Below are positions 7,463 to 42,077 of a DNA stretch of 64,000 bases, piece after piece. The position numbers and the translations under genes were made by a program. The notes under the pieces are model-generated. The model did no database searches and was not told where the DNA came from. It saw nothing but the letters and a program-made list of their open reading frames with translations. How positions within the stretch are numbered: position 1 is the stretch's first letter; each line of letters begins with the position of its first letter. Origin of the DNA: a bacterium (lineage in GTDB: Bacteria; Patescibacteriota; Patescibacteriia; UBA10025). The stretch spans positions 154,910 through 218,909 of the forward strand of contig JAKAGM010000001.1 in the NCBI GenBank assembly GCA_021815445.1. Reading direction: 5' to 3'.

Positions 7463-8173
7463 ATGCCATCAATTTCTATTGAAGCGACAAAACGGGAGGA
7501 AACAGGCAAGCGCGCACGATCGTTGCTGCACCGCAACATTATTCCTGCGGTTGTCTATGGCCACGATAGGACAAGCACGGCAATCGCGGTACCCTATGCC
7601 ACGTTTGAGCGGGCATACGCCCAGGCAGGGGAGAGCAGTCTCGTTGACTTGAAAATAAACGAAGATCAGCCCGTCAAAGTGCTCATCCAGTCAATACAAT
7701 CTGACCCACTCACGGGAAAGTTCCGTCATGTTGATTTTCATCAGGTAAAAATGACCGAAAAGCTCAATGCCGATGTCGCTTTGAAATTCATCGGCGAGTC
7801 TAAGGCCGTGAAGGAACTGGGCGGAGTGCTGATCAAAGCGCTGGATCATATCCCTGTTGAATGTCTGGCCAAAGATTTGATTCACGAGATTGATGTTGAT
7901 ATTTCCGTGTTACGTACGTTTGACGATGTTATCCGAGTTCGCGATTTGCGTGTCCCGACCACTGTCTCAGTCAAACACGATACTGACGATGTTGTTGCAA
8001 CTGTCCAACCCCCGCGCAGTGAAGAGGAAATAAAAGAGCTGGAAGCGAAGCCTGAGGCGGAAATCGGGGAGGTGGAAGTTGCCGAAAAAGGAAAGAAGAA
8101 GGATGAGGATGCAGAGGGTGAAACCGCTGCACCAGCGGACGAAAAAGGAAAAGTTCAAGAAGAAAAGAAATAA
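7463..8173 (+). CDS. rplY: 50S ribosomal protein L25 (general stress protein Ctc form) with Lys/Glu-rich C-terminal tail
   Basis: L25/Ctc N-terminal domain (IEATKREETGKRARSLLHRNIIPAVVYG) plus second beta-barrel domain. Charged low-complexity tail. Confidence 0.9.
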   Translation: MPSISIEATKREETGKRARSLLHRNIIPAVVYGHDRTSTAIAVPYATFERAYAQAGESSLVDLKINEDQPVKVLIQSIQSDPLTGKFRHVDFHQVKMTEKLNADVALKFIGESKAVKELGGVLIKALDHIPVECLAKDLIHEIDVDISVLRTFDDVIRVRDLRVPTTVSVKHDTDDVVATVQPPRSEEEIKELEAKPEAEIGEVEVAEKGKKKDEDAEGETAAPADEKGKVQEEKK

Positions 8174-8180
8174 ATATCCT

Positions 8181-9272
8181 ATGGGTAAAAGACCGGAAGG
8201 CGTCACAGAATACACCTGGGGGGCCCGCAAGAGCCGAAAAAAAATAATTCTTATCTCATCTGCCGCCGTAGTAGTAGTGGCAGCCGCCGTGGCGGGCTTT
8301 CTCTTTTTTAGCAAAGGAGAAAAACCGCCGACAAACTCTACCAACGCTTCGCTCGGCCCCAATATGACCGCGGGACAATACCTCCCAAGGAAAATAGACG
8401 GGGTGATGGCGATTGTTGATAAGTCTAATGTATTTCCGGTTGCAATCATGATAGAGAATCTCGTGTCTGCTCGTCCGCAGGCGGGTTTAGGGGATGCAAA
8501 TGTTGTTTATGAAGCTTTAGCGGAAGGCGGTATTACCCGCTTCATGGCAATTTTTGCTTCGGGTGCTGATATAAAAAAAATCGGGCCAGTACGGTCGGCG
8601 AGACCGTATTATCTTGACTGGGCAAAAGAATATGGCGCGCTTTATGTACATATCGGAGGAAGTCCCCAGGCAATTGCGGATATTAAAGCAAAGGGAGTCT
8701 TTGACTTGAACCAGTTTTACCATTCCCCGAATTTCTATCGAGATAGCGCCCGTCCTGCCCCGCACAATCTCTACACGACAACAAGATTGCTTGCTTTTGC
8801 GCTGCGCGACCTCAAAGCAAGCGATACGGGTTCGTATGATAGTTGGACGTTTAAGGATCCCGAGAATACAGCGTCGCTTCCTACGGATCAAAAAACTATT
8901 GAGATAGATTTTTCAAGCTTCAGCTACAAGGTTGACTACACTTTTGATCGGGAAAAAAACATATATTTAAGGAACCAGGCCGGAGCGCCGCACCTCGATG
9001 CTGATGGCAAGCAAATTACAGCGCGAAATGTGATTGTCCAATACACCAAAACAAGCCTTGCGGACAGCACTGGCAGGCTCACGATGGTCACGACAGGTGA
9101 GGGGAGGGCGCTGTTCTTCAGGGACGGATCAGTAATTCAAGGCAGTTGGAAAAAAGATCAGAGCGGCTCGAGGACCCGGTATGTGGATGCATCAGGCAAC
9201 GATATACAGCTTAATCGGGGAACAACGTGGGTAGAGATTGTCCCTGATGACCGTCAGGTCGTGTATAAGTAG
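8181..9272 (+). CDS. DUF3048 (YerB-like) domain protein, membrane-anchored, paralog 1
   Basis: ATG at 8181 lies 8 nt after the rplY stop. N-terminal TM helix. Conserved core MIENLVSARPQAGLGDANVVYEALAEGGITRFMAIF typical of DUF3048. Confidence 0.6.
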   Translation: MGKRPEGVTEYTWGARKSRKKIILISSAAVVVVAAAVAGFLFFSKGEKPPTNSTNASLGPNMTAGQYLPRKIDGVMAIVDKSNVFPVAIMIENLVSARPQAGLGDANVVYEALAEGGITRFMAIFASGADIKKIGPVRSARPYYLDWAKEYGALYVHIGGSPQAIADIKAKGVFDLNQFYHSPNFYRDSARPAPHNLYTTTRLLAFALRDLKASDTGSYDSWTFKDPENTASLPTDQKTIEIDFSSFSYKVDYTFDREKNIYLRNQAGAPHLDADGKQITARNVIVQYTKTSLADSTGRLTMVTTGEGRALFFRDGSVIQGSWKKDQSGSRTRYVDASGNDIQLNRGTTWVEIVPDDRQVVYK

Positions 9273-9301
9273 GCCAAGAAAAATAAAAACAAAAGACAGC
9301 C

Positions 9302-10429
9302 ATGAGCAACGCAAAAACAAAGCGTGCGGAAATATTTTTTAGGCATCCACGTGTCTTGGGTACGTGCGTTTTTTGCATTTTCACGCTCATAGCGTGGGTT
9401 GGGGTCGTCCGCCTTGCCGATGCCTCGCGGGTAAAGTGGTCCTGGTTGCTCAATACGAGCGGCACAACTTCTCCGGCCATTGCCGATACCGTCCCGGATG
9501 CGCCAGCGATTGTTGCCCAATACAGACTGCTCGACGGTATGAGTGCGACGGGAACCCAGGCCGCTGACTGGCCTGCTGCAGTCATGATCGAGAATCTCCC
9601 CAGCGTTCGGCCTCAATCGGGTCTCGGTGATGCGATGGTTGTCTACGAAGCGCTTGCCGAGGGAGGGGCTACTCGCTTTATGGCCCTTTTTGATCCCCAA
9701 ATTTCCGCGGCTGAAAAAATAGGTCCTGTCAGGTCTTCCCGTCCATATTATATCGAATGGCTCGGGGAGTATGACGCTCTCTACGCGCATGCCGGCGGAT
9801 CGCCAAAAGCGCTGCTGGTTATTTGGGAAGCACGGGTAAAGAACGTAGAAGCCCTGGGTCCTGACGGAAAGTATTTTTGGCGCGACCATTCGATTGCGGC
9901 TCCGCATAATCTTTTTACCAGCGCGGCCGAACTGAGGCTCGCATTGCAAACCAAGGGCTGGCTCGCGATGAAAGCCAGTTTTTTGCCGTGGACATTTGTC
10001 GATGATGCGACAGTAGACCAGCGGGGTGAGGACGGGAAAAGCGCCGAATTTAATTTTTCCACGGGAAAAAGCTATCTCGTACGGTGGCAGTATCAACGCC
10101 CGACAAACTCGTACCTGCGTTATAACGCCGGAGTGCCCCATATAGACAACAATACTGGTAAGCAGCTCGAAGCGAAGAACGTGGTAGTCCAGCTTGTTGA
10201 TCCTCCTGAGCTTGACGGGACAGGGAAGGGAAGACTCGATATCTATGTCGGCGGGACGGGTAAAGCATGGGTATTCAACAACGGCAACGCGATTGAGGCC
10301 ACGTGGAAAAAACTGTCCCGAACGGACAGAACGAGGTTCTACGATAGTGCTGGGCATGAGATACCCATGGTGCGCGGAGCTACATGGGTTCACGTTGTAC
10401 CTAAGGCACAGGCTGTTACGTACCGGTAG
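9302..10429 (+). CDS. DUF3048 (YerB-like) domain protein, membrane-anchored, paralog 2
   Basis: Same architecture and motifs as the upstream gene (AVMIENLPSVRPQSGLGDAMVVYEALAEGGATRFMALF). Tandem duplication. Confidence 0.6.
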   Translation: MSNAKTKRAEIFFRHPRVLGTCVFCIFTLIAWVGVVRLADASRVKWSWLLNTSGTTSPAIADTVPDAPAIVAQYRLLDGMSATGTQAADWPAAVMIENLPSVRPQSGLGDAMVVYEALAEGGATRFMALFDPQISAAEKIGPVRSSRPYYIEWLGEYDALYAHAGGSPKALLVIWEARVKNVEALGPDGKYFWRDHSIAAPHNLFTSAAELRLALQTKGWLAMKASFLPWTFVDDATVDQRGEDGKSAEFNFSTGKSYLVRWQYQRPTNSYLRYNAGVPHIDNNTGKQLEAKNVVVQLVDPPELDGTGKGRLDIYVGGTGKAWVFNNGNAIEATWKKLSRTDRTRFYDSAGHEIPMVRGATWVHVVPKAQAVTYR

Positions 10430-12825: not shown

Positions 12826-15405
12826 TCACTTCAGCAGAACCATCTTCTTAATCTCCACCGCCTGATCGGTGACGAGACGGTAGAAGTACATGCCCGATGC
12901 GTACTGTAAAGCGTTCCACTGTGCAGTGTGCTCTCCGGCAAGCTGGTTCTCATCGGCAAGAGTCTCAATCCTCTGGCCAAGGATATTGTAAATGTCCAAC
13001 CTGACATGAGTACCCACCGGAAGAGTGTACCTGATCGTCGTGCCCGGGTTGAACGGGTTCGGGTAATTCTGGGACAGGGAGAATGTCCGAGGCAGAGTAT
13101 TGTCTCCTCCATGTGCCGTGATCTTAGGCGAACCGGGAATGGTGCGCCTAATGACGATGCACCTGTCCGCATACCCGTCACTGTTGTAATCCAGCCAGAA
13201 TTCTTGGGTGGACGGGCGGAATACGCCGATGTTGGTGCCGCAATTACCGGTCCAGTCGCCGACGATTGGCGAATCACCCGCATCTCCATACGTCCGGGAG
13301 AAGTCAGCAACGTGGTCGTTATCGTAATCCAACCAGAAGGTCCTGGTAGAAGGACGGTAAATACCGATGTTCCAGTCCAGGTCGCAGTCCCAATCACCAA
13401 CAAGAGGGATATCACCGTTATCCCCGAAAGTGACGGAAAAATCAGCTACACCGTTGTTGTCGTAATCTAACCAGAATGTCCGGGTAGAGTGGCGAAAGAT
13501 TCCTATCCGGGTATAGCCGTTGCCGAGCCAATCTCCGGCTAGAGGAATATCGCCGCCATCACCATAGGTGATGCCGATGTCCATCTGGCCGTTGTTGTCG
13601 TAATCCAGGTAAAACACCCGGTAGGCCGGACGATAGAAACCGACACTGTAGTAGGTATTGCCGTCCCAGTCACCGGCCAAAGGTTTGTCTACGGCTGAGC
13701 TGTAATGAAGCTCCAGCTCCGTATACCCGTCATTGTTGGTGTCCAGATAGAAGGTTTGCGTCTCGTCGGCATAGACACCGACCTCGAAGATCCCGTCCCC
13801 GTTCCAATCACCTGCGATGGGGGTGACGGTCAAGTTGGCGAATGACTCAGAAGAGTCACTGCCTGCGGCGTGATAGGTCCCGCCCGAGCAGGTTCCAAGC
13901 ACGTCAACCGCCGGACTGCCAGTCTCATAGATACGATGTTGAGTACCGGCGCTGTTCTTGAAGTCCTGGCACCACTTCCCATTCAAATAGAAACGATCGA
14001 TGGTGGCGCAACCAAATAGGTTTACCCCACCAAGTTCATCGTAGCGGGATTTAATGCTCCCATACACCCAGTAGGCCTCGTTCGTGGCCGAAGTATTGCA
14101 CTCCCAGTTCTCTTGGTCGTACATGATCCTGCCGGATCCGTCGTCGCCACCAGTGAATTCCTGAATCAGGATACTGCCGGAAAGAACATGGACCTGACCG
14201 TCATTCCCAGAGCTTGGGTTCCCTACATCGCGGCGGGCGCCGTTGCGGTCATAGGCATCGGTAAAGAGGTAGGAGTACTGGTTGTTCCATCCGGAAGAAG
14301 TCCAGCCGGGTGTCGTCGTCGTGTTGCACTTGATGGTGGTTCCGTCCTGGATGTACCCTTTCTGGAAATCCTGACGCCAGTGGTCTGGGTTCTCGGTGTA
14401 CTTGTACCGGTTGGTGATCGGCATTCCAAGGGCCGAATTCGGCCCTCCCTGTCCTGACGGACCGTCTGAACAGCTGGGCGTTGGACAGCTGCCGCTGCAT
14501 TCTGCCTCAAGGTTGTCCCACGTAGCCCATTCTTGATCGCCGACACAGTAGGCATGTCTTGCGCCACCTAGGGCGTCGTATACGACCGCGCCAGCATAGA
14601 AGCCGCCACCGTAAACCGTGCGATAACAATTGACAGCAGTGTTTGTGCCAGACTGGTAAAGCGAGTTTGGATTGTACGCATGGTACCAACCAATCGATCC
14701 AGCCGTTCCACCAAGCCATTGATTCGGCGACTGTGACACGGCGTATGGGTTGCGGTCATTCAGAGCAGTAGATTTCCGGAGGTCAATGATGTTGGAGTTG
14801 ACAGAGGTGTAGAAAGTGCTCGCAGGTGGGCTGCTTGAGCAGTCGCACGGATCGGGGTACCCATCGGTGACGGTTTGACCAAGGTAGTTCTTAAAATCAA
14901 CATACACCTCAGTCATGTCCTTTGTCGCAGGGTTCGCCGTCCCTTGCGTGTTGTAGTGTATATGCGATGGCCATTGGTCATCCGTTACGCCTGTTGTCCC
15001 GCAGAATCCAACCACTTGCCCCTTCTCAACCTTCTCGCCGACGCTCACGACAATCTCTGTTTGGTGTGCCAGCCGGCCATAGTAGCCGTCCCCATAGTCA
15101 ATTAGGACAACATTGCCATACGGACTATTTGCTCCACTCTGTTGCTTGGATCTTCCAGCAAACACTATTCGCCCTGAATCTGGAGCTAGAAGTGGATACC
15201 CCAGGTCGTTGGCGCCGGTTCCATAATTGTAGTCCCATGCGTCTTCGCCGGAATGGGATACGCTCCCATTCCAGCCTTGCGCACACCACCATGTATCACC
15301 TGCCATAAACGGTAGCCCGATGTCTGGCGGCGTTGCTAAGGCTTTCGAACTGCCCAGAGCGACTATGACAGCCGCTGCCACGAAACGACCGATCGTCCTC
15401 TTCAT
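12826..15405 (-). CDS. secreted multidomain protein: M23 (LytM) peptidase + FG-GAP/VCBS-like repeats + type IX secretion system C-terminal sorting domain
   Basis: 859 aa. Signal peptide. M23 motifs (HSGEDAWDYNYG ... GQVVGFCGTTG ... SHIHY). Five ~46-aa repeats of P[LI]AGDWDGNG...G[IV][FY]R....F[YW]LDYDNNG. The final ~80 aa (LSQNYPNPFNPGTTIRYTLPVGTHVRLDIYNILGQRIETL...ASGMYFYRLVT) match the Por_Secre_tail/T9SS CTD consensus closely. Strong AGGAGG RBS. Confidence 0.8.
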   Translation of the reverse strand: MKRTIGRFVAAAVIVALGSSKALATPPDIGLPFMAGDTWWCAQGWNGSVSHSGEDAWDYNYGTGANDLGYPLLAPDSGRIVFAGRSKQQSGANSPYGNVVLIDYGDGYYGRLAHQTEIVVSVGEKVEKGQVVGFCGTTGVTDDQWPSHIHYNTQGTANPATKDMTEVYVDFKNYLGQTVTDGYPDPCDCSSSPPASTFYTSVNSNIIDLRKSTALNDRNPYAVSQSPNQWLGGTAGSIGWYHAYNPNSLYQSGTNTAVNCYRTVYGGGFYAGAVVYDALGGARHAYCVGDQEWATWDNLEAECSGSCPTPSCSDGPSGQGGPNSALGMPITNRYKYTENPDHWRQDFQKGYIQDGTTIKCNTTTTPGWTSSGWNNQYSYLFTDAYDRNGARRDVGNPSSGNDGQVHVLSGSILIQEFTGGDDGSGRIMYDQENWECNTSATNEAYWVYGSIKSRYDELGGVNLFGCATIDRFYLNGKWCQDFKNSAGTQHRIYETGSPAVDVLGTCSGGTYHAAGSDSSESFANLTVTPIAGDWNGDGIFEVGVYADETQTFYLDTNNDGYTELELHYSSAVDKPLAGDWDGNTYYSVGFYRPAYRVFYLDYDNNGQMDIGITYGDGGDIPLAGDWLGNGYTRIGIFRHSTRTFWLDYDNNGVADFSVTFGDNGDIPLVGDWDCDLDWNIGIYRPSTRTFWLDYDNDHVADFSRTYGDAGDSPIVGDWTGNCGTNIGVFRPSTQEFWLDYNSDGYADRCIVIRRTIPGSPKITAHGGDNTLPRTFSLSQNYPNPFNPGTTIRYTLPVGTHVRLDIYNILGQRIETLADENQLAGEHTAQWNALQYASGMYFYRLVTDQAVEIKKMVLLK

Positions 15406-18863: not shown

Positions 18864-18944
18864 GCCGATGTAGTCCCGTCCCGCCCGGGCGGGACGAGGA
18901 TCCACGATCCCGCGGCGGGATCGGGACTCAGTTGGTCCGCCTGA
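18864..18944 (+). repeat. degenerate tRNA-Thr 5' fragment (GCCGATGTAG ... CTCAGTTGGT) split by a GC-rich insert carrying a perfect 20-bp palindrome
   Basis: gccgatgtag at 18864-18873 and ctcagttggt at 18930-18939 reproduce the 5' end of the adjacent tRNA-Thr. The insert contains CGTCCCGCCCGGGCGGGACG (18877-18896) and the near-palindrome GATCCCGCGGCGGGATC. Confidence 0.5.
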
Positions 18945-19017
18945 GCCGATGTAGCTCAGTTGGTAGAGCAACTCCATGGTAAGGAGTAGGTCCGCGGTTC
19001 AAATCCGCGCATCGGCT
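18945..19017 (+). tRNA. tRNA-Thr(GGT)
   Basis: Cloverleaf by hand: acceptor GCCGATG/CATCGGC, D arm GCTC-AGTTGGTA-GAGC, anticodon stem ACTCC/GGAGT with loop ATGGTAA, T arm CGCGG-TTCAAAT-CCGCG, discriminator T. No encoded CCA. Confidence 0.85.
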
Positions 19018-19110
19018 TAGGCGGGGCAAGTGTCGCAACTCCATGCCAAGTCCCGTCGAATGGCGGGAGTAAGGAGTAGGTCCGCGGTTCAAATCCGCGC
19101 ATCGGCTCCA
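19018..19110 (+). pseudogene. pseudo-tRNA: 3' two-thirds of tRNA-Thr(GGT) duplicated, with a 23-nt insert inside the anticodon loop and an encoded CCA
   Basis: GCAACTCCATG + [CCAAGTCCCGTCGAATGGCGGGA] + GTAAGGAGTAGGTCCGCGGTTCAAATCCGCGCATCGGCTCCA. There is no 5' acceptor strand or D arm, so it cannot fold into a tRNA. Confidence 0.5.
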
Positions 19111-19113
19111 TGG

Positions 19114-19197
19114 GGGTGGATACCGAAGCGGTCAAACGGGGCAGACTGTAAATCTGCTGGCCTCCGGCCTTCGTAGGTTCGAATCCTACTCCACCCA
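19114..19197 (+). tRNA. tRNA-Tyr(GTA), long variable arm
   Basis: Acceptor GGGTGGA/TCCACCC, anticodon stem GCAGA/TCTGC with loop CTGTAAA, variable arm TGGCCTCCGGCCTTC, T arm GTAGG-TTCGAAT-CCTAC, discriminator A. Confidence 0.85.
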
Positions 19198-19364
19198 GAT
19201 AGTCGATTTAATGAAGATTACCAATCTCCTCATAATTCGATATAGTAACGAAGTCTGGTGAGGATTCGAAGGGCAGAAGCGAACCCCGCGGCCGCGGGGG
19301 AGCGTCGGCGAATGCGAGCAAGCGAAGCATTCGACGCTGCCCAGGGCCCGAATCCTACTCCACC
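19198..19364 (+). repeat. GC-rich palindromic spacer ending in a 24-nt direct repeat of the tRNA-Tyr 3' end (cgaatcctactccacccagatagt at 19341-19364)
   Basis: Contains perfect palindrome CCCCGCGGCCGCGGGG, the long imperfect hairpin GCGTCGGCGAATGC...GCATTCGACGC, and an outer stem GGGCAG/CTGCCC. The copy keeps the T-loop and acceptor 3' strand but lacks the T-stem 5' strand. Confidence 0.5.
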
Positions 19365-19391
19365 CAGATAGTGAAAAGTCCCCTGAGTCTT

Positions 19392-19466
19392 GCCAGCGTA
19401 GCTCAGTGGTAGAGCAACTGTTTTGTAAACAGTAGGTCGTCGGTTCAAATCCGACCGCTGGCTCCA
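19392..19466 (+). tRNA. tRNA-Thr(TGT), CCA encoded
   Basis: Acceptor GCCAGCG/CGCTGGC, anticodon stem ACTGT/ACAGT with loop TTTGTAA, T arm GTCGG-TTCAAAT-CCGAC, discriminator T followed by CCA. Confidence 0.85.
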
Positions 19467-19501
19467 GCCGATCAATTATTTACTTTATTTTAAAAAAAAC
19501 T

Positions 19502-19657
19502 ATGTCACAGGATAACCTTACCAAGCTCGAGTGCACGGTGTGCCATCGTATCAATTATCACACCTTTAAGAACAAGAAAAAGCTCAAGAACCGTCTTGAG
19601 ATGAAAAAGTTCTGCACGTGGTGCGGCAAGCATCAGGTACACAAAGAGACGAAGTAA
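19502..19657 (+). CDS. rpmG: 50S ribosomal protein L33 (51 aa; below ORF-track size cutoff)
   Basis: [51 protein letters not shown]. The CxxC...CxxC zinc ribbon and the conserved C-terminal HKETK identify L33. Located in the classic tRNA-Thr/Tyr-rpmG-tRNA-Trp context. Confidence 0.85.
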
Positions 19658-19673
19658 CCCTGAGTCTCATTGA

Positions 19674-19748
19674 GGGGGTATGGTGAAATGGCTATCACAA
19701 CGGTCTCCAAAACCGTTATTCTAGGTTCGAATCCTAGTACCCCCGCCA
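19674..19748 (+). tRNA. tRNA-Trp(CCA), CCA encoded
   Basis: Acceptor GGGGGTA/TACCCCC, anticodon stem ACGGT/ACCGT with loop CTCCAAA, T arm CTAGG-TTCGAAT-CCTAG, discriminator G followed by CCA. Confidence 0.85.
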
Positions 19749-23209: not shown

Positions 23210-23360
23210 TTCGCCCACATCCTTTTTTACTGGCTTTTTTGACTTCACTATTAATCCTTGATACAGTGTCACCGCGCCAGTGGATGTTTTTTGGCGTTGT
23301 ACGGTGCGTTCGTTGACAATTAACGCAGTAAATATGGGCCATTTTCAGGAGGGTTTCTCA

Positions 23361-24401
23361 ATGGCAAGGAAGATCGCAGTGATTCCCGGAGACGGAATCG
23401 GACCAGAAGTCATCAGACCGGCTGTGGATGTGCTCAAACATCTTCAGCCGGGATTCGAGTTGGACATGTTTGACCTGGGTGCTGAGAGATATCTCAAGGA
23501 TGGCACGACGATGCCGCCGGAGCTGATGGCGTCTTTGAAGGACGGCGTCTATGATGCCGTCTTACTCGGCGCCCTTGGGGATCCGCGCGTGCCCGGGAAT
23601 GAACCCGCGCATGACATACTCCTTGGATGCCGGTTCGGGCTGGATCTGTTTGTGAACCACCGCCCCGTCAGATTGCTCGTCCCGCGGTACTCGCCACTCA
23701 AGACCGCTTCCGGGATCGATATGACCATATTCCGGGAGAACACCGAGGGTGAGTACGTCGGCATGGGCGGGACGATGCGCAAAGGCCTCCCTGACGAGAT
23801 TGCAACCGAGCTGTCTGTCGCGACCCGTCACGGAGTTGTGCGTATCATCGAGTATGCGTTCATGTGGGCCCAGCAGAACGGGAAGAGACGAGTCTGTTGT
23901 GCGACCAAAGCGAATGCCCAGCCTGAAACCGGGGGTGTGTGGATGCGGGCATTCAGAGACATTTCCGCTCGGTATCCCCGAATTGACGCTCGGCACATGT
24001 ATATTGACGCCGTCGCGGCGCAGATGGTTTTGCATCCCGAGGATTTTGACGTGATTGTCACCAGCAATTTGTTCGGGGACATCATCACTGATCTCGGCGC
24101 CGCCATTGCCGGCAGCATGGGCCTCGCGGCAAGCGGTAACATCAATCCCGCGGGCATCGGGCTCTTTGAGCCGGTGCATGGCAGCGCTCCGGATATCGCA
24201 GGAAAGGGAATCGCAAATCCCATGGCGGCCATCCTGAGCGTCGGGATGATGTTCGCCCATATGAAGTTGCCGGAACTTGCAGAGAAGGTCGAGAACGCGG
24301 TCACCGCGTGCCTCGAGGAGTCGATTGTCACCCAAGATCTTAGTGGGACATACACGACCGTTGAAGTCGGCAATGCGGTTCTGCAGAAACTCGTCGAATG
24401 A
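23361..24401 (+). CDS. isocitrate/isopropylmalate dehydrogenase family enzyme (LeuB/tartrate-DH/homoisocitrate-DH-like)
   Basis: MARKIAVIPGDGIGPEV N-terminus, C-terminal NLFGDIITDLGAAIAGSMGLAASGNI block. A GGAGGG RBS lies 6 nt upstream. Confidence 0.8.
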   Translation: MARKIAVIPGDGIGPEVIRPAVDVLKHLQPGFELDMFDLGAERYLKDGTTMPPELMASLKDGVYDAVLLGALGDPRVPGNEPAHDILLGCRFGLDLFVNHRPVRLLVPRYSPLKTASGIDMTIFRENTEGEYVGMGGTMRKGLPDEIATELSVATRHGVVRIIEYAFMWAQQNGKRRVCCATKANAQPETGGVWMRAFRDISARYPRIDARHMYIDAVAAQMVLHPEDFDVIVTSNLFGDIITDLGAAIAGSMGLAASGNINPAGIGLFEPVHGSAPDIAGKGIANPMAAILSVGMMFAHMKLPELAEKVENAVTACLEESIVTQDLSGTYTTVEVGNAVLQKLVE

Positions 24402-24436
24402 AATGAATCGAACGAATCCATGGTAAAGGAGCAAAC

Positions 24437-26356
24437 ATGAAACTTACGGGACGAGTTCTGGTCCTCTATGAGGATCCGGAACTCATACGACGCCAGTTGG
24501 ACGGGGAAGACATTCCGTATACCGGGCAGCCGCTTGCCTTTGGCGTCAACACTGACCAGATGATCAGCGGCGGCGCTTGTACGCTCGGGTATACCGAGGA
24601 CATTCTCGGCCCGCATTTCCTCGAGAACTTTCTCGGTGTTGTGAATGCCGATGATGTTCACAAGGGCGGGTTCCAGGTGATCGTGGCGGGTGAGGCGTAC
24701 GGTACGGGGTCGAGCCGTGAAGTCGCCGTGGTCGCACACCGGGGGGCGGGGATCAAGCTCGTGATAGCACGAAGTTGTGAACGCATCTTCATGGAGAACA
24801 TGGCCTATTCCGGCATGCCGTTCACGGTTGATTTCAAAATTCTCGAACGACTGCTCTCTGGCGGGGACGTGAACTTCAGCGAGCTTAGCGGGGCCCTCCC
24901 ATCTTTTTTCGGGGAAGTTACGAGCTCCGGCGGGCTCTTGCCCTATGGCTCGGCATGGTGGAGGGGAGACATTTCGCCTTGGTACGATACAGGGCGCAAA
25001 CCTCATCCGATGACCATCGTGGAAAAGATCATCGCGTCACAAGCATGGTCTGGCTGTAAGTCGTTCGGCGTACACGCGGTGAATCCTGGCGAACAACTTC
25101 TCTGTAAGGTCGGGTTCCGCGGGATGCATGAATACACAGCAGGCATGTGCTTCTCGTTGTTCCGTGAAGCCTATGGTGACTCCAGACCGCATACCTCCCG
25201 ACTTCAGGACGTGGTGTGCTTTCAGGATCATTTTGTGCTGATCGACTCACCGACCACGCCGGTCGAGGCTAAAAACGCGCGGCTCGGTCCATCAAGGCAG
25301 CTGACTGATGAGATGGTGGCCGCCTGCCAAGAGTACGGCGTTCCACTGCACGGACCGGGCCGTGATCGAGCGGCAGGCGTTTGTCACCGGCTCGTTGTCG
25401 AGCAGTATGCCCGTCCAGGCGATATCGTTGTGCTGACTGACTCCCATACGCCGACGGCAGGTGTGATGAACTGTTTTGCGTTCGGCGTTGGATCGACGGC
25501 GATGGCGTTCGCTCTGCGGACTGGCATGATCCCGGTGACAGTTCCGAAGACAGTCCGCGTGATTGTGAACGGGCGTCCCCACTCCGGGCTTTCGCCGAAA
25601 GATCTTATCCTTCATCTGATCGGGGATCCGTATTTCCGAGAAAAGCGGTGGATGAGTAATCCTACTGACACCTGTGTGATTCAGTTCGGGGGGAAAGGAC
25701 TGAGCTCTTGGAGCGTCGATGAGCTCTCCGTGCTCACCAACATGACTGTGGAGGGAGGGCTCATGAGCGGTGTAGTTGAGCCGTGTCTTCCGATCTACGA
25801 TTTTCTGAATGCGTACCGGGGTGATGGTATGGCGGGTTCGATGGTCCATCCCGATGACGGCGCGCATTATGAGCGGGTTATCGAGGTCGACCTTGCCGAG
25901 GTGCCACTCACCATCGCTTTACCGGGTGACTCACGGAACCGCGCCTTATTGAGCGATCATACGGGGGTGGAAGTCCACAACGTCGTGATCGGCTCCTGCA
26001 CTGGCGCCTCACTTAAGGATCTCAGATCCGCGTCAACAGTTTTGCGCGGCAGAACGATCAAACCGGGCGTTCGTGTCACAGTGAGTCCTTCAAGTTCGGA
26101 TGTAGCCGCACGGGCCGAGGAAGCGGGGATTCTAACACTTTTCCGTTCCCTTGGTGCCGTCGTCACTGAACCAGGTTGCGGAGCATGTATCGGCAACGGA
26201 CCCGGTGTTCCATTACCTGGTGAGGTTACCGTATCCACGACCAACCGCAACTTTGACCGACGCATGGGTTCTGACGGGCCTGTTTATCTCGTTTCGCCAT
26301 CTGTCGCTGCGGCCAGTGCCGTGACGGGTCGTCTGACTGACCCGAGAAGCCTTTAA
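24437..26356 (+). CDS. aconitase-family dehydratase with permuted fusion: LeuD-like swivel domain (N-terminal) + LeuC-like catalytic domains (C-terminal)
   Basis: N-terminal ~170 aa carry VIVAGEAYGTGSSREVAVVAHRGAGIKLVIARSCERIF (LeuD signature GxGSSRE). The C-terminal part carries DSHTPTAG, GVGSTAMA, GSCTGAS, GCGACIG (Fe-S cysteines) and TTNRNFDRRMG. 639 aa. Confidence 0.75.
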   Translation: MKLTGRVLVLYEDPELIRRQLDGEDIPYTGQPLAFGVNTDQMISGGACTLGYTEDILGPHFLENFLGVVNADDVHKGGFQVIVAGEAYGTGSSREVAVVAHRGAGIKLVIARSCERIFMENMAYSGMPFTVDFKILERLLSGGDVNFSELSGALPSFFGEVTSSGGLLPYGSAWWRGDISPWYDTGRKPHPMTIVEKIIASQAWSGCKSFGVHAVNPGEQLLCKVGFRGMHEYTAGMCFSLFREAYGDSRPHTSRLQDVVCFQDHFVLIDSPTTPVEAKNARLGPSRQLTDEMVAACQEYGVPLHGPGRDRAAGVCHRLVVEQYARPGDIVVLTDSHTPTAGVMNCFAFGVGSTAMAFALRTGMIPVTVPKTVRVIVNGRPHSGLSPKDLILHLIGDPYFREKRWMSNPTDTCVIQFGGKGLSSWSVDELSVLTNMTVEGGLMSGVVEPCLPIYDFLNAYRGDGMAGSMVHPDDGAHYERVIEVDLAEVPLTIALPGDSRNRALLSDHTGVEVHNVVIGSCTGASLKDLRSASTVLRGRTIKPGVRVTVSPSSSDVAARAEEAGILTLFRSLGAVVTEPGCGACIGNGPGVPLPGEVTVSTTNRNFDRRMGSDGPVYLVSPSVAAASAVTGRLTDPRSL

Positions 26357-30640: not shown

Positions 30641-30677
30641 AGCTCCTCCATGTTTTTATGGGGAGCTTTTGTTTTTT
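30641..30677 (+). terminator. rho-independent terminator after the micro-ORF
   Basis: AGCTCCTCCAT-gttttt-ATGGGGAGCT followed by tttgtttttt. Confidence 0.6.
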
Positions 30678-30704
30678 GACGGGGCGTGAGTCGCATTCTA
30701 TACT
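30676..30704 (+). promoter_or_regulatory. sigma70-like promoter TTGACG-17-TATACT for the DMT transporter gene
   Basis: ttgacggggcgtgagtcgcattctatact. Confidence 0.5.
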
Positions 30705-30737
30705 GACTTCAGTGTGCAGGGATATTGTATTCACCAT

Positions 30738-31661
30738 ATGAACAGACAAACCTATCTTGGCATCAGTTTGGCGCTCGGTACGGCGGTTATTTCCGGCGCA
30801 TCGAATTTTATTGCGAAGATTGGAGTTACCGTCGTGAATAATGGCGTTGTGTTTACCGCACTTAAAAATTCTCTTGTCGCCGGTGCGCTCATCGGCATTA
30901 TCCTGCTCCTGAAACGCCTGCCAGAGCTCAGGAAGCTTTCTCACAAAGACTGGGCGAAACTGGCCGCAATCGGCGTTGTCGGAGGCGGAGTTCCGTTCGT
31001 TCTATTTTTTACGGGATTGACGCATACGACAGCTCTAACTGCAGGGGTTATTCATAAAACACTGTTTTTTTGGGTAGCGTTGCTTGCCGCTCGTTTTTTG
31101 AAAGAGCGGATTGGCCGGGCCCAGACGGTTGCATTCTTTTTTCTCATTGGCGGTAATTTCGTACTCGGCGGTCTTCGGGGATTGACGTTCGGAGCAGGCG
31201 AGCGGATGATTTTGGCGGCGACAATATTTTGGGCGATTGAAAATGTCATTGCAAAACGTGCGCTTAATAACATTCCCAGTCTTGTTGTCGCCGGAGCGCG
31301 GATGACATTCGGGTCCGTCATACTGTTTGCCGTCGTGGGGCTCCAGGGAAATTTCCATCTCATCGGATCATTGGATGCTCGGCAATGGCTGTGGACGCTT
31401 ATTCCGTCCGCGCTGTTGCTTGGGTACGTACTTACCTGGTACTCGGCGCTCAGACGCCTGTCCGCCACTTTTGCAACGTGCCTGTTGGTGCCGGCAACAT
31501 TTGTGACTGGTTTACTATCGCAGGTATTTCTCGACAAGTCTCTTACCGCGAACGACTTAATGAGCGGTGCGGTTGTCCTCGCCGCATGCGGAGTCCTTAT
31601 GTATGGCGCTTATCATTCGACGAAATATGCAGTCCCAAGCTCGCAGCGCGCGGATGCTTGA
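30738..31661 (+). CDS. DMT superfamily (EamA-like) permease
   Basis: Ten predicted TM helices in two EamA-like halves. Start at MNRQTYLGISL. Confidence 0.7.
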   Translation: MNRQTYLGISLALGTAVISGASNFIAKIGVTVVNNGVVFTALKNSLVAGALIGIILLLKRLPELRKLSHKDWAKLAAIGVVGGGVPFVLFFTGLTHTTALTAGVIHKTLFFWVALLAARFLKERIGRAQTVAFFFLIGGNFVLGGLRGLTFGAGERMILAATIFWAIENVIAKRALNNIPSLVVAGARMTFGSVILFAVVGLQGNFHLIGSLDARQWLWTLIPSALLLGYVLTWYSALRRLSATFATCLLVPATFVTGLLSQVFLDKSLTANDLMSGAVVLAACGVLMYGAYHSTKYAVPSSQRADA

Positions 31662-32388
31662 CGGCGTCGCTCGCTGTAGCCGATACGCATTTGGGCCGAA
31701 TAAACTGAGAATGTGCGGACCTGATGCAAATCGGGAACTTTCCGCGTATATGCGGGAGGAAGTGAGCGATGACGGGCTCACCCACATCCTGTCCCAGTTC
31801 AAAACGCTGTATCCATACCTGCGGTCAATAGCTGAGGCGAACCGCATCCGTGACCCCTTCGATCCGCGTGTCGTCGAGGCGTATTGGATTGGCAACGAAC
31901 TTCTCGAATCAATTACGCAAAAAACATTTTACACGCACCTGACGGACGCGCTTCATCTCAAGAATAAGACTTCAACCCGGGATTTCGATGAACTCGCGCA
32001 GAAACTTCCTCAGGGTGCGCGCATGCACCACTCGTTCCATGTTTTTAACGTGTATAAGCGTACCGGCAACCTCGAAATCCTCCATTCTCTCGAGAGCATG
32101 GACGCGTGCAGGATCAGCTGGGGACATGTTACGCGCGTTGACGGCCCGCGGGTGTTTATCGACAGGAAACCCCTTATGCTTGACGGCCACAGGTTATTCC
32201 TCGGAAAGTGCGAAGAGTACGAAATAAAGCGACAGTTAGATGTTGATGATATTCTTGATGAGGTCGAGGTTGGCGATTGGATAACGCTCCACTGGTACCG
32301 TCCGTGCGAGATTGTGTCAGCGCAGCATATACGCTGGCTTGAGCTCTATACGCAAAAGCACATTGCTCTTGCGAACCAGACGCTATAA
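31654..32388 (+). CDS. hypothetical conserved protein (244 aa), translationally coupled to the DMT permease and followed by the hydrogenase maturation protease
   Basis: ATGCTTGA start/stop overlap with the upstream gene. Cys-containing N-terminus (ARCSRYAFGPNKLRMCGPD). No recognisable family. Confidence 0.45.
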   Translation: MLDGVARCSRYAFGPNKLRMCGPDANRELSAYMREEVSDDGLTHILSQFKTLYPYLRSIAEANRIRDPFDPRVVEAYWIGNELLESITQKTFYTHLTDALHLKNKTSTRDFDELAQKLPQGARMHHSFHVFNVYKRTGNLEILHSLESMDACRISWGHVTRVDGPRVFIDRKPLMLDGHRLFLGKCEEYEIKRQLDVDDILDEVEVGDWITLHWYRPCEIVSAQHIRWLELYTQKHIALANQTL

Positions 32389-32392
32389 GGAT

Positions 32393-32770
32393 ATGGAAGT
32401 GTGGATTTTCGGCAACCCTGACCTTCCTGAGGACTCGCTCCCGATACGGCTTCACTCAGAACTCATGAAACGCTTCCCTGCGCTGAGTTTTCGAATTCTC
32501 GATCCCTTGGATGAGTGGCAAATTCCAGACAAACTTGAGATGATAGATACGGTCCGGGGCATCGACCATGTTCGCGCTTTCACATCGCTCGATGAATTCG
32601 AAGGTTCGCCTCACGTGACCATGCACGATTTCGACCTCGGGATGCAGCTTCGTTTTTTGGCAAAACTCAAAAAACTTCCTCCGTTCATAATGTACGGGGT
32701 GCCCGATACTTTTTCAGTCGGCCAAGCGCTTCGCGAACTTACGCCGATGCTCGATCAACGCGCAAGGTAA
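32393..32770 (+). CDS. hydrogenase maturation endopeptidase (HycI/HoxW/FrhD-like)
   Basis: 126 aa. N-terminal MEVWIFGNPDLPEDSLP resembles the GNxxxGDDGxG motif region. Conserved Asp/His candidates are present (DTVRGIDHV, HVTMHDFDLG). Consistent with the C-terminal extension on the adjacent large subunit. Confidence 0.55.
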   Translation: MEVWIFGNPDLPEDSLPIRLHSELMKRFPALSFRILDPLDEWQIPDKLEMIDTVRGIDHVRAFTSLDEFEGSPHVTMHDFDLGMQLRFLAKLKKLPPFIMYGVPDTFSVGQALRELTPMLDQRAR

Positions 32771-34043
32771 GGAAGTGTGACGCGCAACTCATGCAGGGAT
32801 CATATGCCCGTATGAGTTTTTCGAGCTCGAGCTGGAGCGTTTCCTCGGACGGGCCGGACGGGAGGAGCTCCTCGACGCGGCGAGCCATGTCCTGCTCGAT
32901 GTTAATCTGATTCTGGCCCGTCGGCACGACTATTTCGCCTTCAATGACGTTGCCGTCTTTGCCGATGGAAACTTTGTGATAGAGCGTACCGCGGGGAGCT
33001 TCGATCACTCCGATGCCGGTTCCCTCGGTTCGTGACGGCGCGACAATCTTTTCCGGTACAAACGTATAGTGCTCGAGGATATCGAGAGAATCATCGACGC
33101 AATGCAAGAGCTCGATAGCCTGGGCGAGGTTATTATGGAAAATGTTGGTCGAGGGAAAGCGATTGAGCGTCTGCGGGATACTCGCGCGGGTTTTTACGTG
33201 GAGTGTATCTTTTGCGAGATTGATGCGAGCGAGCGCGCCCACCATGAACGATTTCCCTTTAAAGGCGTACCCGGAAGCGTGTGAATAGGGGATAATGACA
33301 TGCTCAAGGTGGCTGCGGTAATCAGTTTCACGGATGAAATCGCCGGCATCACTTACAATATTCCCTTCGAGGTAATTGAACGGATTTGCGACAAGCGCCA
33401 TAAACTTAGTTTTTCTGTCAAACGCGTAATCGGATTTTTCGAACCGTTCAATTGTTCGGAGGACAGCGGGACGGATTTCACGAAGTTTGGCGACCGCTTG
33501 TTTGATCTCTTCTGGCTTTGGAATCTTAAAAAATCCGCCGATGGTCGGATTCACGGCATGTACGCTCCTTCCCGCTATGATGATTGAGAGGTAATTTCCC
33601 GCTGCCTTAATATCGAACGCATCGTGAAGTATCTGGTGCTGGACGGGATCGTTTTCGTCAAACTCCAGAAACGAATCTTTGCCGTACATGTCGGGCATGG
33701 CAAAAAGGTAAAGGTGGAGGGCGTGGTCGCGAATGTTCAACCCGTACATCGTCAGTTTCTTCATGATCTGTGATTGCGGCGACGGTGCAATACCCAGCGC
33801 ATGTTCACAAGCTTCGATGCTGCAAATGAGGTGGGCGTTTGAACAGGTGCCGCAAATGCGCGCAAGGAGAGTCGGAAGCATCCGGTATGGTTTGCCTCGC
33901 ATTGCCTGGGTGTAAAAACGTTTGAACTCAGTGATCCCGAATCTGCAGTGCTCAACCTTTCCTTTTGTAATTTTCACGTCGAGAGTGGCCGCGCCCTCGA
34001 CCTTGGTAATTTCTTTTGTCAGAGAGAGGTCTACCTGGTGCAT
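32739..34043 (-). CDS. [NiFe]-hydrogenase large subunit (group 3-like), with C-terminal extension after the terminal His
   Basis: L1 motif RICGTCSNAH (RxCGxCxxxH) and L5 motif DPCMSCASH (DPCxxCxxH), then the 11-residue tail FLTLRVDRASA. N-terminal VEGAATL lies where the usual R[IV]EGH block is expected. 434 aa. Confidence 0.85.
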   Translation of the reverse strand: MHQVDLSLTKEITKVEGAATLDVKITKGKVEHCRFGITEFKRFYTQAMRGKPYRMLPTLLARICGTCSNAHLICSIEACEHALGIAPSPQSQIMKKLTMYGLNIRDHALHLYLFAMPDMYGKDSFLEFDENDPVQHQILHDAFDIKAAGNYLSIIIAGRSVHAVNPTIGGFFKIPKPEEIKQAVAKLREIRPAVLRTIERFEKSDYAFDRKTKFMALVANPFNYLEGNIVSDAGDFIRETDYRSHLEHVIIPYSHASGYAFKGKSFMVGALARINLAKDTLHVKTRASIPQTLNRFPSTNIFHNNLAQAIELLHCVDDSLDILEHYTFVPEKIVAPSRTEGTGIGVIEAPRGTLYHKVSIGKDGNVIEGEIVVPTGQNQINIEQDMARRVEELLPSGPSEETLQLELEKLIRAYDPCMSCASHFLTLRVDRASA

Positions 34044-34048
34044 AGATA

Positions 34049-34564
34049 TTAAACAATATGAAATTCTTTCAACAGACCCGTGAGAACGCTCATGAAGGTG
34101 GCTTCATTCATCGGGCAGCCCGGCACGTTGATGTCGACGGTAATGACCTCGGAAAGTTTCTGTGCCTTCGGCAGGTACGCGAAACGTTCGAGAACGGGCT
34201 GTATTTCCTTAAGTCTCCCGGGATCAAACTGGTTTCGCTGCGTTGAGGGTAGTCCTATCACTGCACAGGCCCCGATAGCGACAACCTTGTGTGATTTTTT
34301 TCTGATCTCTTTCACCCGATCCACATGGTTTTTTGATGAAAGCGCGCCCTCAATAAATGCCACATCCAGCTCGTCCAGGATGTTATGCGACTGCAGGACC
34401 CTTGCGTGGCGAATGTCCAATACTCGTTTCCATTCCTGCCAATGTTCGTTCATCAGCTCGGTAAAAAGGATAGTACTGTCCTCGCAGCAGCTGAACGTAA
34501 ACCAGCCTATACGCAGTTTTTTTACTGATTTTCCACCTAATGAATTATTCGGCTGGTTATGCAT
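34049..34564 (-). CDS. [NiFe]-hydrogenase small subunit, minimal NuoB-like form (proximal [4Fe-4S] cluster only)
   Basis: 171 aa. Cysteines in FSCCEDS, AIGACAV and the GCP motif VDINVPGCPMNEAT. No medial or distal cluster cysteines. Confidence 0.8.
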   Translation of the reverse strand: MHNQPNNSLGGKSVKKLRIGWFTFSCCEDSTILFTELMNEHWQEWKRVLDIRHARVLQSHNILDELDVAFIEGALSSKNHVDRVKEIRKKSHKVVAIGACAVIGLPSTQRNQFDPGRLKEIQPVLERFAYLPKAQKLSEVITVDINVPGCPMNEATFMSVLTGLLKEFHIV

Positions 34565-34673
34565 AGATTGCGAACTCTACACAACAGTATAGCAAAAAAA
34601 ACTGTAGCAAACCACGATGTTTACAAAAGCACTCGAATCCAAAAAAGTACTCGCATTGATGGTTTTTTGAAGG

Positions 34674-34705
34674 CGGAATTGACCCGGAAGGCAAGATGTG
34701 CTAGA
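34674..34705 (+). promoter_or_regulatory. putative promoter TTGACC-17-TAGAGT with ATG 4 nt downstream (leaderless FtsB-like gene)
   Basis: ttgacccggaaggcaagatgtgctagagtatacATG. Confidence 0.35.
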
Positions 34706-34711
34706 GTATAC

Positions 34712-35149
34712 ATGAAACTTTTTAGTATTATGAAGCAGAGAATGAACCAGGAGGCGCTGGTGCGCCGGATGTTGAAGTCTCGCCTCGTCCTTGGTATAGA
34801 GGTGCTGTTGCTGGTTTTAATCAGCGTAGCGCTCGGTAAAGAAGTAGTGCAACGGTATACTGTCGACAGGCAAATCACCCAGCTTAAAAACGAGTATAGG
34901 GATCTCCAGAAGAATACTGTTGATTTGCAGAAGCTTATTTCCTATTTTCAAAGTGCGTCATTTCAAGAAGAACAAGCGCGCACTAAACTGGGACTGAAAA
35001 AACAGGGAGAGGAAGTCATCTTGCTGCCGAAGACAGAGAACCAGGCAGAAGTGACAAGCGACAGCGCCGAATCCGGCCTGGCCAGTCAGCAGACACTGGG
35101 TAATCCCCAACGCTGGTGGAATTTCTTCTTTACCCCAAAAACATCTTAA
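34712..35149 (+). CDS. septum formation initiator family protein (FtsB/DivIC-like)
   Basis: N-terminal TM helix and coiled coil. C-terminal ARTKLGLKKQGEEVILLP resembles the FtsB/DivIC motif. Confidence 0.55.
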   Translation: MKLFSIMKQRMNQEALVRRMLKSRLVLGIEVLLLVLISVALGKEVVQRYTVDRQITQLKNEYRDLQKNTVDLQKLISYFQSASFQEEQARTKLGLKKQGEEVILLPKTENQAEVTSDSAESGLASQQTLGNPQRWWNFFFTPKTS

Positions 35150-36555: not shown

Positions 36556-36631
36556 TGGAGCCACCCGTCGGATTCGAACCGACGACCTCTGCTTTACGAA
36601 AGCATTGCTCTACCAGCTGAGCTAGGGTGGC
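36556..36631 (-). tRNA. tRNA-Thr(CGT), CCA encoded
   Basis: Reverse complement: GCCACCC-TA-GCTC-AGCTGGTA-GAGC, anticodon loop TTCGTAA, T arm GTCGG-TTCGAAT-CCGAC, GGGTGGC-T-CCA. One A:G mismatch at 27:43. Confidence 0.75.
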
Positions 36632-36644
36632 ACGAGATTTCCTC

Positions 36645-36715
36645 AGCGGATAACGGGAGTCGGACCCGTACCTCAACCTTGGGAAGGTCGTGTACTACCG
36701 CTATACTATATCCGC
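36645..36715 (-). tRNA. tRNA-Gly(CCC), 71 nt
   Basis: Reverse complement: acceptor GCGGATA/TATCCGC, anticodon stem CGACC/GGTTG with loop TTCCCAA, T arm ACGGG-TCCGACT-CCCGT (unusual C55), discriminator U. Confidence 0.55.
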
Positions 36716-41867: not shown

Positions 41868-41937
41868 CGGGATTCCCAGGCTTTACAGGGGAGTAGTTTT
41901 TTTGTAGAGTGTCTTCAGGAACTCTGTTTTTTTATAT

Positions 41938-42008
41938 TCCGGGATCGTCTAATGGTAGGACACAGGCCTTTGGAGCCTGGTATCTTGGTTCGAGTCCAAG
42001 TCCCGGAG
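41938..42008 (+). tRNA. tRNA-Gln(TTG)
   Basis: U1:A72 acceptor (TCCGGGA/TCCCGGA) and G73 discriminator typical of tRNA-Gln. Anticodon stem CAGGC/GCCTG with loop CTTTGGA. T arm CTTGG-TTCGAGT-CCAAG. Confidence 0.75.
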
Positions 42009-42077
42009 AAAGGGAAGCAAATATGATGAAACTTATCGAATTGAACGTGGAAATATAATCTTAATCACTTTTACCGT

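Follow-up and report, generated by a model that had tools for sequence, protein, structure and literature searches.

A Patescibacteria hyd2 [NiFe]-hydrogenase locus with a predicted single-cluster small subunit and a convergent, putative maturation cassette

Two clades of [NiFe]-hydrogenase specific to the Candidate Phyla Radiation (CPR) and related to group 3b, one of them named hyd2, were described by Jaffe et al. 2020 (BMC Biol 18:69, PMC7304191). In that account, the hyd2 large subunit is 3b-related, sits on a long branch, and is found in Patescibacteria only. The small subunit is consistently truncated, with a mean of 164 amino acids (aa), and no beta or gamma subunits are co-located. Some hyd2 loci lie near PF07992, iron-sulfur (Fe-S) families, and a HypC-like family, and the gene plots of the paper show same-strand genes only. 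On hyd2, the same text states that "its function remains uncertain"; no later literature on the clade was found. The subject of this report is a hyd2 locus in a 64,000-nucleotide (nt) stretch of DNA, the window, from a bacterium of the lineage UBA10025 (Patescibacteriota; Patescibacteriia). The window spans positions 154,910 to 218,909 of the forward strand of contig JAKAGM010000001.1 (assembly GCA_021815445.1), and it was analyzed with 10 kb of each flank, 84 kb in total. Coordinates below are window positions.

Group 3b hydrogenases possess a delta subunit with three Fe-S clusters, a beta subunit with Fe-S clusters, and a gamma subunit that binds FAD and NAD(P). The solved members, Hyh-type enzymes including SHI of P. 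furiosus and the T. kodakarensis enzyme (9nez, 9e15, 5yxy), are four-subunit alpha-beta-gamma-delta complexes. They are the best match for both subunits of the window locus, are likewise cytosolic, and share the same L1 and L2 motifs. The window locus differs in having no beta or gamma gene in the 84 kb and a shortened small subunit, in which CCED replaces CxxC. Short one-cluster small subunits, which have to hand electrons directly to a further protein, are also known from HoxY of group 3d (5xf9_C, 189 aa) and from 7t2r_E (179 aa). Enzymes of this type dock on large HoxFU- or HydABC-type diaphorase modules, whereas no such diaphorase genes are present in the window or in hyd2 relatives. The similarity to these two proteins is also weaker (E 6e-9 and 4e-7) than that to the 3b delta subunit (E 5e-13).

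The window locus is composed of two convergent units, as seen in the open reading frame (ORF) listing and in Pfam and NCBIfam scans. On the minus strand lie the genes of a truncated 171-aa small subunit (34049-34564; PF01058) and a 434-aa large subunit (32739-34043; PF00374). On the plus strand, the accessory operon begins with an EamA/DMT-family transporter of ten transmembrane segments (30714-31661; PF00892), followed by a 244-aa DUF6390 protein (31654-32388; PF19927) and a divergent 125-aa endopeptidase of the HybD/HycI type (32393-32770), the latter assigned by fold and transitive homology. The truncated small subunit and the absence of co-located beta/gamma genes, together with close homologues from the GW2011-series Parcubacteria, make the locus a member of the Patescibacteria hyd2 clade. 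Nothing essential sets it apart from hyd2 as presented in PMC7304191, the small subunit being 171 aa here compared with the mean of 164 aa. A preliminary description of this DNA placed all of these genes correctly. It also called the locus an orphan and an unusual find, a view that is superseded by the 2020 publication of the clade and by more than 4,800 homologues of the large subunit. As far as the paper was covered here, the convergent EamA-DUF6390-protease cassette, the EamA-DUF6390 fusions, and the division into loci with and without partner genes are absent from it. The reading favored here, with a probability of roughly 55%, is a cytoplasmic and catalytically competent hyd2 hydrogenase whose single-cluster heterodimer would donate electrons to a soluble carrier and whose maturation would be served by the convergent cassette.

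The large subunit matches PF00374 with E 4.4e-29. Its top PDB matches are the group 3b alpha subunits 5yxy, 9nez, and 9e15 (E ~1e-57), and its top NCBIfam model is sulfhyd_ShyA (E 3e-72), where the score of 243.6 bits is far under the equivalog cut-off of 700. Both nickel-binding boxes pointed out in the preliminary description, RICGTCSNAH (residues 62-71) and DPCMSCASH (residues 415-423), are present, as are EAPRGTLYH and an 11-residue C-terminal extension, FLTLRVDRASA, after H423. These features are nearly invariant in 62 relatives. The Ni/Fe-ligating cysteines of the motifs are kept in 60 to 62 of the 62, the catalytic glutamate E16 (in KVEGA) in 60, and EAPRG in all; every listed catalytic or metal-ligand position is retained in at least 58. 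The tail after the final histidine is 7-11 residues long in the relatives and starts with FL. With these motifs intact, the large subunit is apparently catalytically competent, by prediction from its sequence.

Each of the best 120 homologues of the large subunit has at least 60% identity, and the named ones all come from Patescibacteria lineages or from a plain "bacterium". Identity across the loci compared is 55-78%. The absence of a histidine in the N-terminal VEG motif, where EGA stands in place of EGH, had been regarded as a special substitution. This was rejected: the solved 3b enzymes, the closest available, read RVEGKG and also have no histidine there, and serine (26/62) or alanine (25/62) is the norm in hyd2. 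A large-subunit-like protein is also encoded beside DUF6390 in two other Patescibacteria genomes (L057, 1788-2999, minus strand; L084, 8654-9895, plus strand). These proteins keep EAPRG and one cysteine of the C-terminal motif (HNPC), the cysteine pair of the N-terminal RICGTC is gone, and the search for a protease homologue was negative in both loci. They may represent a non-catalytic derivative.

The small subunit matches PF01058 (E 7e-20) and is closest, among PDB and NCBIfam entries, to the group 3b delta subunit, FrhG, and VhuG. In the 3b delta subunit, which is 256-266 aa long, it aligns just with the first ~150 residues; the match to HydD covers positions 4-154 of 261, with an NCBIfam score of 57.9, compared with a cut-off of 500. 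Because the alignment stops there, the protein appears to keep the proximal-cluster domain only. It has exactly four cysteines, C26, C27, C100, and C150, in the motifs FSCCEDS, GACA, and PGCP. C26, C100, C150, and D29 are invariant in 43 of 43 relatives and E28 is kept in 42, while C27 is replaced by serine in six of the 43 and five have only three cysteines. At the position of SCYGC in 3b enzymes, hyd2 reads FSCCED[SN]T. One proximal Fe-S cluster is predicted, with C26, C100, C150, and either C27 or D29 as likely ligands; the fourth may be Asp29, which would give a CxxD motif. Relatives have small subunits of 158-200 aa (median ~170). Inspection of the N-terminus by eye, with no predictor, found no Tat signal motif.

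The preliminary description had taken this protein for a NuoB-like subunit with four cysteines that suffice for the proximal cluster only. The cysteine count is confirmed and a single cluster is supported; the NuoB type is not. NuoB models match residues ~135-165 only, about 30 residues near the C-terminus, at E-values no better than 2e-4 and with a score of 21 bits where the cut-off is 143, and C27 is a serine in the six relatives named above. A NuoB-type small subunit was therefore rejected, and with it the proposed mixture of a NuoB-type small subunit and a group 3 large subunit. PF01058 is generic for small subunits, and the tandem CC is the sole NuoB-like feature.

Genes for possible electron-transfer partners were compared across 86 loci, 80 of them anchored on DUF6390 and six on the large subunit. 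A Pyr_redox_2 reductase with Reductase_C or Rubredoxin_C domains, matching E. coli NorW at 3e-26, is found in 29 of the 86. An 88-aa Fer4_15 ferredoxin (CIGAASC...CP) is found in 17. The alpha and beta subunits of 2-oxoacid:ferredoxin oxidoreductase (OFOR) occur in 11 and 10 loci, and ADP-forming acetyl-CoA synthetase (ACD) occurs in seven. NifS and NifU are present in 10 loci each and Nfu in five. The usual gene order in partner-bearing loci is ferredoxin, reductase, small subunit, large subunit.

The 125-aa protein of the plus-strand operon has no direct Pfam or NCBIfam match, and PDB searches with the single sequence and with a profile returned chance matches only. Its distant homologues (E ~1e-16) are annotated as PF01750, the family of HybD, HycI, and HoxW. 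A PF01750 match at E<=1 is obtained for 30 of 36 family members; most of these are weak and the best is 2.8e-6. The AlphaFold2 model has a predicted local distance difference test score (pLDDT) of 92. Its four top Foldseek matches in the PDB are HybD (5ija and 1cfz), 3pu6, and HycI (2e85), with probabilities of 0.99-1.0 and TM-scores of 0.53-0.64. Apart from 3pu6, an entry deposited as an uncharacterized protein, all are maturation endopeptidases. Residues G7, N8, D10, D14, D52, H78, D79, and D81 are invariant in the family. D10/D14, D52, and H78 would be the equivalents of the acidic, Asp, and His metal-binding triad of HybD. The identification as a divergent HybD/HycI endopeptidase is thus supported by the modeled fold and by transitive homology, and the gene call of the preliminary description stands on this footing. 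The protein is shorter than its characterized counterparts (125 aa compared with 148-162 aa). Its gene adjoins that of a large subunit with a cleavable tail and overlaps the 3' end of this substrate gene with its own 3' end.

The 244-aa protein was at first considered unclassifiable. It matches the Pfam family DUF6390 (PF19927) with E 2e-59. The predicted model (pLDDT 85) consists of a helical domain (residues 1-152), a beta-barrel (155-221), and a C-terminal helix. Members have invariant cysteine and histidine residues (C21, H95, H126, H129, C152, H213, and C218) that suggest a metal site. The C-terminal 90 residues share an oligonucleotide-binding (OB) barrel and C-terminal helix with the chaperones HypC, HybG, and HupF (PF01455; 2z1c, 2ot2), along with a GDW-x-x-x-H motif and a C-x4-G-x-V-x2-V-D-G register. 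In hhalign and pairwise alignments, H213 falls on His51 of HypC and C152, by register, on Cys2. The pairwise alignment score is 50, compared with 25.5 +/- 4.5 for shuffled sequences. DUF6390 has no PF01455 match in Pfam, its PDB searches by single sequence and profile gave chance matches only, and a literature search on the family found no papers. Unlike HypC, DUF6390 is also found fused to transporters and to helix-turn-helix (HTH) domains. It is probably a metal-handling maturation factor and not a redox partner.

DUF6390 is encoded by 366 species-representative genomes. The best 80 of these 366 are titled as Patescibacteria lineages, as unclassified "bacterium" metagenome-assembled genomes, or as "uncultured Gammaproteobacteria". 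The last label is probably an annotation artifact, because those loci carry the same cassette. Of the 86 loci, 83 have DUF6390 and 76 the protease, EamA and the large subunit are each found in 72, and 67 have the small subunit; the convergent arrangement of the window is the usual one. EamA and DUF6390 form one in-frame ORF in five loci (L022, L041, L079, P0308, and P0385). The EamA protein of the window matches PF00892 with two repeats (E 2.7e-30). E131, E163, E176, and H114 are conserved in its family alignment, and these residues do not indicate a substrate.

The N-terminal domain of DUF6390 has 756 representative matches, most with the standard architecture of ~250 aa. The exceptions are fusions to HTH_3/XRE, PadR, GntR, and EamA domains. 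The gene of the GntR fusion has an Fbp-like ABC importer directly downstream on the same strand and a [NiFe] small-subunit gene 8 kb off. Downstream of the PadR fusion, one unannotated gene and then an SBP_bac_5 importer of the Nik/Opp-like type lie on the same strand. The XRE fusion sits between two SBP_bac_5 importer gene sets. HypC immediately precedes it, and genes further downstream, on the other strand, encode HycI and a 640-aa [NiFe] large subunit. Outside the CPR, therefore, HTH-DUF6390 fusions have hydrogenase genes in two of three loci, and HypC and HycI in one. This recurrent link to transporters, together with the hydrogenase genes, suggests a metal-binding role for DUF6390, with nickel as the obvious candidate. 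A broader proposal is put forward tentatively, and it may well be wrong: DUF6390 would be an unrecognized metal-handling family, most likely for nickel, that ties membrane transport to [NiFe]-hydrogenase maturation. It would act in Patescibacteria as a transporter-docked chaperone and elsewhere as the sensing domain of HTH regulators. In the strong version of this proposal, the cassette would replace part of HypA-F in tiny genomes.

The locus of the XRE fusion (L094, from the Logan assembly SRR22388294, non-CPR) encodes, in order, an HTH protein, SBP_bac_5, two permeases, HypC, XRE-DUF6390, and a second SBP_bac_5 importer. Its convergent side encodes a NifU/Rieske fusion protein, HycI, and the 640-aa large subunit. 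This locus would serve well as a model for studying DUF6390 function.

In the proposed mechanism, the large subunit from the minus-strand operon would hold the Ni-Fe site and the small subunit one proximal Fe-S cluster. With only one cluster, the heterodimer must hand its electrons straight to a soluble carrier, which is likely a small ferredoxin. In many relatives, this ferredoxin would be tied to NAD(P)H through the FAD protein resembling NorW and rubredoxin reductase, and in some to 2-oxoacid oxidation via OFOR and ACD. On this view, the hydrogenase would serve as a fermentative H2 valve that is possibly reversible, the direction of flux being deduced from these neighbors. In the subclade of the window, the carrier may be encoded away from the locus. 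The plus-strand operon would be a maturation cassette and would not supply redox genes. The HybD-like endopeptidase would cut off FLTLRVDRASA after H423 once nickel has been inserted. DUF6390, with its HypC-like chaperone domain and its helical Cys/His domain, would handle nickel or the iron cofactor precursor for the large subunit, physically coupled to the EamA membrane transporter.

Several points weigh against this mechanism. To our knowledge, hyd2 is known from sequence alone, and the possible ligation by Asp29 comes from alignment. No ferredoxin, flavoprotein, or OFOR gene is found in the window or in the 10 kb on each side. A tblastn search of the window with the Pyr_redox_2, ferredoxin, OFOR, ACD, and NifS/U families that neighbor the relatives gave no match, and the window ORFs have neither the Cys motif of a ferredoxin or rubredoxin nor GxGxxG at the N-terminus. 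The preliminary description was right that beta/gamma, diaphorase, cytochrome, and membrane subunits are missing; tblastn, motif scans, and the flanks show none within 84 kb. Among loci of the window's own subclade (large subunit at least 70% identical), reductase, ferredoxin, and OFOR occur in 0 of 18, compared with 26, 17, and 10 of the 42 more distant loci. The lack of partner genes is thus a trait of this subclade and not of all hyd2, and the carrier suggested for the window's genome is taken purely from more distant relatives.

The maturation side has its own difficulties. In DUF6390, C152 is internal, after a 150-aa helical Cys/His domain, and the essential cysteine of HypC is residue 2. 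We know of no nickel transport by the EamA family. Searches for HypA-F with single E. coli seeds (phmmer) gave no match in the window, the 10-kb flanks, or the 86 loci (~1.2 Mb), a weak negative, above all for HypA and HypC, since E. coli HycI and HycG seeds likewise missed the protease and the small subunit. Literature searches for hyp genes in CPR gave nothing relevant, and the supplements of PMC7304191 make no mention of hypC-F. If the genome is truly without HypA-F, maturation of the enzyme is itself in question.

Other readings of the locus start from the same observations. The preliminary description proposed DUF6390 as the missing electron-transfer partner, which would require a redox-active metal center on its conserved residues. 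The seven invariant Cys and His residues and the tight linkage to the hydrogenase in most loci are compatible with this idea. DUF6390, however, lacks a CxxC-type Fe-S motif, the fold of its C-terminal half is that of a HypC-type chaperone, and its gene is part of the protease operon, which runs on the other strand from the structural genes. Its fusions to transporter and HTH domains are typical of ligand-binding or chaperone domains and not of redox subunits, and genuine ferredoxin and reductase genes adjoin the small subunit in relatives. A redox role for this protein is improbable. A reversed direction of electron flow is easier to accommodate, though still unlikely: hyd2 would take up H2 from the host or community and reduce NAD(P)+ or ferredoxin for biosynthesis. 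Group 3 hydrogenases are reversible, the NorW-like NAD(P)H-linked reductase and ferredoxin would work both ways, and many of the source samples are groundwater metagenomes. The co-location of OFOR and ACD is, on the other hand, a classic sign of the fermentative disposal of ferredoxin electrons.

The minimal two-subunit form, with no energy-coupling partners in the window, also recalls regulatory H2 sensors such as HupUV/HoxBC of group 2b, and four loci (L001-L004) encode a GAF-PAS histidine kinase and a response regulator at a distance of a few genes. Known H2 sensors have no C-terminal extension and need no endopeptidase, whereas both are conserved here. No kinase or regulator adjoins the genes in the window, the affiliation is with group 3b and not group 2, and ferredoxin, reductase, OFOR, and ACD recur in relatives; a sensor is thus the least probable of the functions considered. 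Loss of the beta and gamma subunits and of two Fe-S clusters, with no hyp genes seen nearby, could instead indicate that the locus is what is left of a four-subunit 3b enzyme, decaying or no longer catalytic, and that it has another role or is being lost. The Cys-less large-subunit-like genes beside DUF6390 in L057 and L084 fit this reading, as do the Cys-less Ehr-like CPR proteins reported in PMC7304191. Such decay is very unlikely in view of the near-invariant metal-ligand and catalytic residues, the kept protease and tail, the 366 species-level genomes with DUF6390, and the large-subunit identity across loci. This conservation and pattern of retention imply purifying selection on catalysis. 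The competent hydrogenase with a convergent maturation cassette remains the preferred reading.

The genes of the locus are closely packed. An 8-nt start/stop overlap, ATGCTTGA, joins the stop of EamA to the start of DUF6390, and the protease gene overlaps the large-subunit gene convergently, by 32 nt at the 3' ends (32739-32770). Both overlaps, the second given earlier as about 32 nt, are read directly from the sequence. Going by ORF coordinates, most related loci appear to share the protease/large-subunit overlap, which measures 50 nt in L007, 41 nt in L008, and 26 nt in L017, for example. Transcription of each unit must therefore enter the other, and antisense coupling is possible. The true start of EamA is probably the ATG at 30738. 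A promoter-like site lies upstream of the EamA-DUF6390-protease operon on the plus strand (30676-30704; TTGACG-17-TATACT, 10/12). In the intergenic region (34565-34734) that separates the small-subunit gene from the divergent divIC, promoter-like hexamers occur on both strands, TTCATA-18-TATACT on the minus strand (34734-34705) and TTGACC-17-TAGAGT on the plus strand (34679-34707). The positions of these sites are sensible, yet they are consensus matches only and their number is not above shuffle expectation. The neighbors of the locus are DivIC (PF04977) and a PpiC rotamase/foldase. A Thr-CGT/Gly-CCC tRNA pair (36556-36715) lies 2 kb from the hydrogenase genes.

Other parts of the window contain several features of separate interest. 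At 23280-26356, an isocitrate/isopropylmalate dehydrogenase (PF00180) adjoins a 639-aa aconitase-family protein of permuted architecture, in which the Aconitase_C swivel domain (78-127) is N-terminal to the main Aconitase domain (222-506). The GC content is 57% in the 24-26 kb bin, compared with ~50% elsewhere. The minus-strand gene at 12826-15405 encodes an 859-aa secreted protein with an N-terminal M23 peptidase and a C-terminal Por_Secre_tail, a sorting domain of the type IX secretion system type that is unusual for a Patescibacteria genome. At 8079-9272 (plus strand), the longest-ORF call conflicts with the genes deposited for L088, where the annotation has two DUF3048 genes in tandem and, on the other strand, the gene of ribosomal protein L25. 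The ORF at 9254-10393 (minus strand) has no Pfam match and is possibly spurious. The window has seven tRNA genes, including a cluster at 18944-19748 (Thr-GGT, Tyr, Thr-TGT, and Trp) and tRNA-Gln at 41937-42009. An Rfam scan of the window returned no families besides tRNA.

The hyd2 clade is spread over hundreds of Patescibacteria species. Linking this single-cluster hydrogenase to metabolism would help to show how ultra-small symbionts of groundwater and sediments get rid of reducing power or obtain it. DUF6390 is a testable candidate for a new step in the delivery of nickel or cofactor to [NiFe]-hydrogenases.

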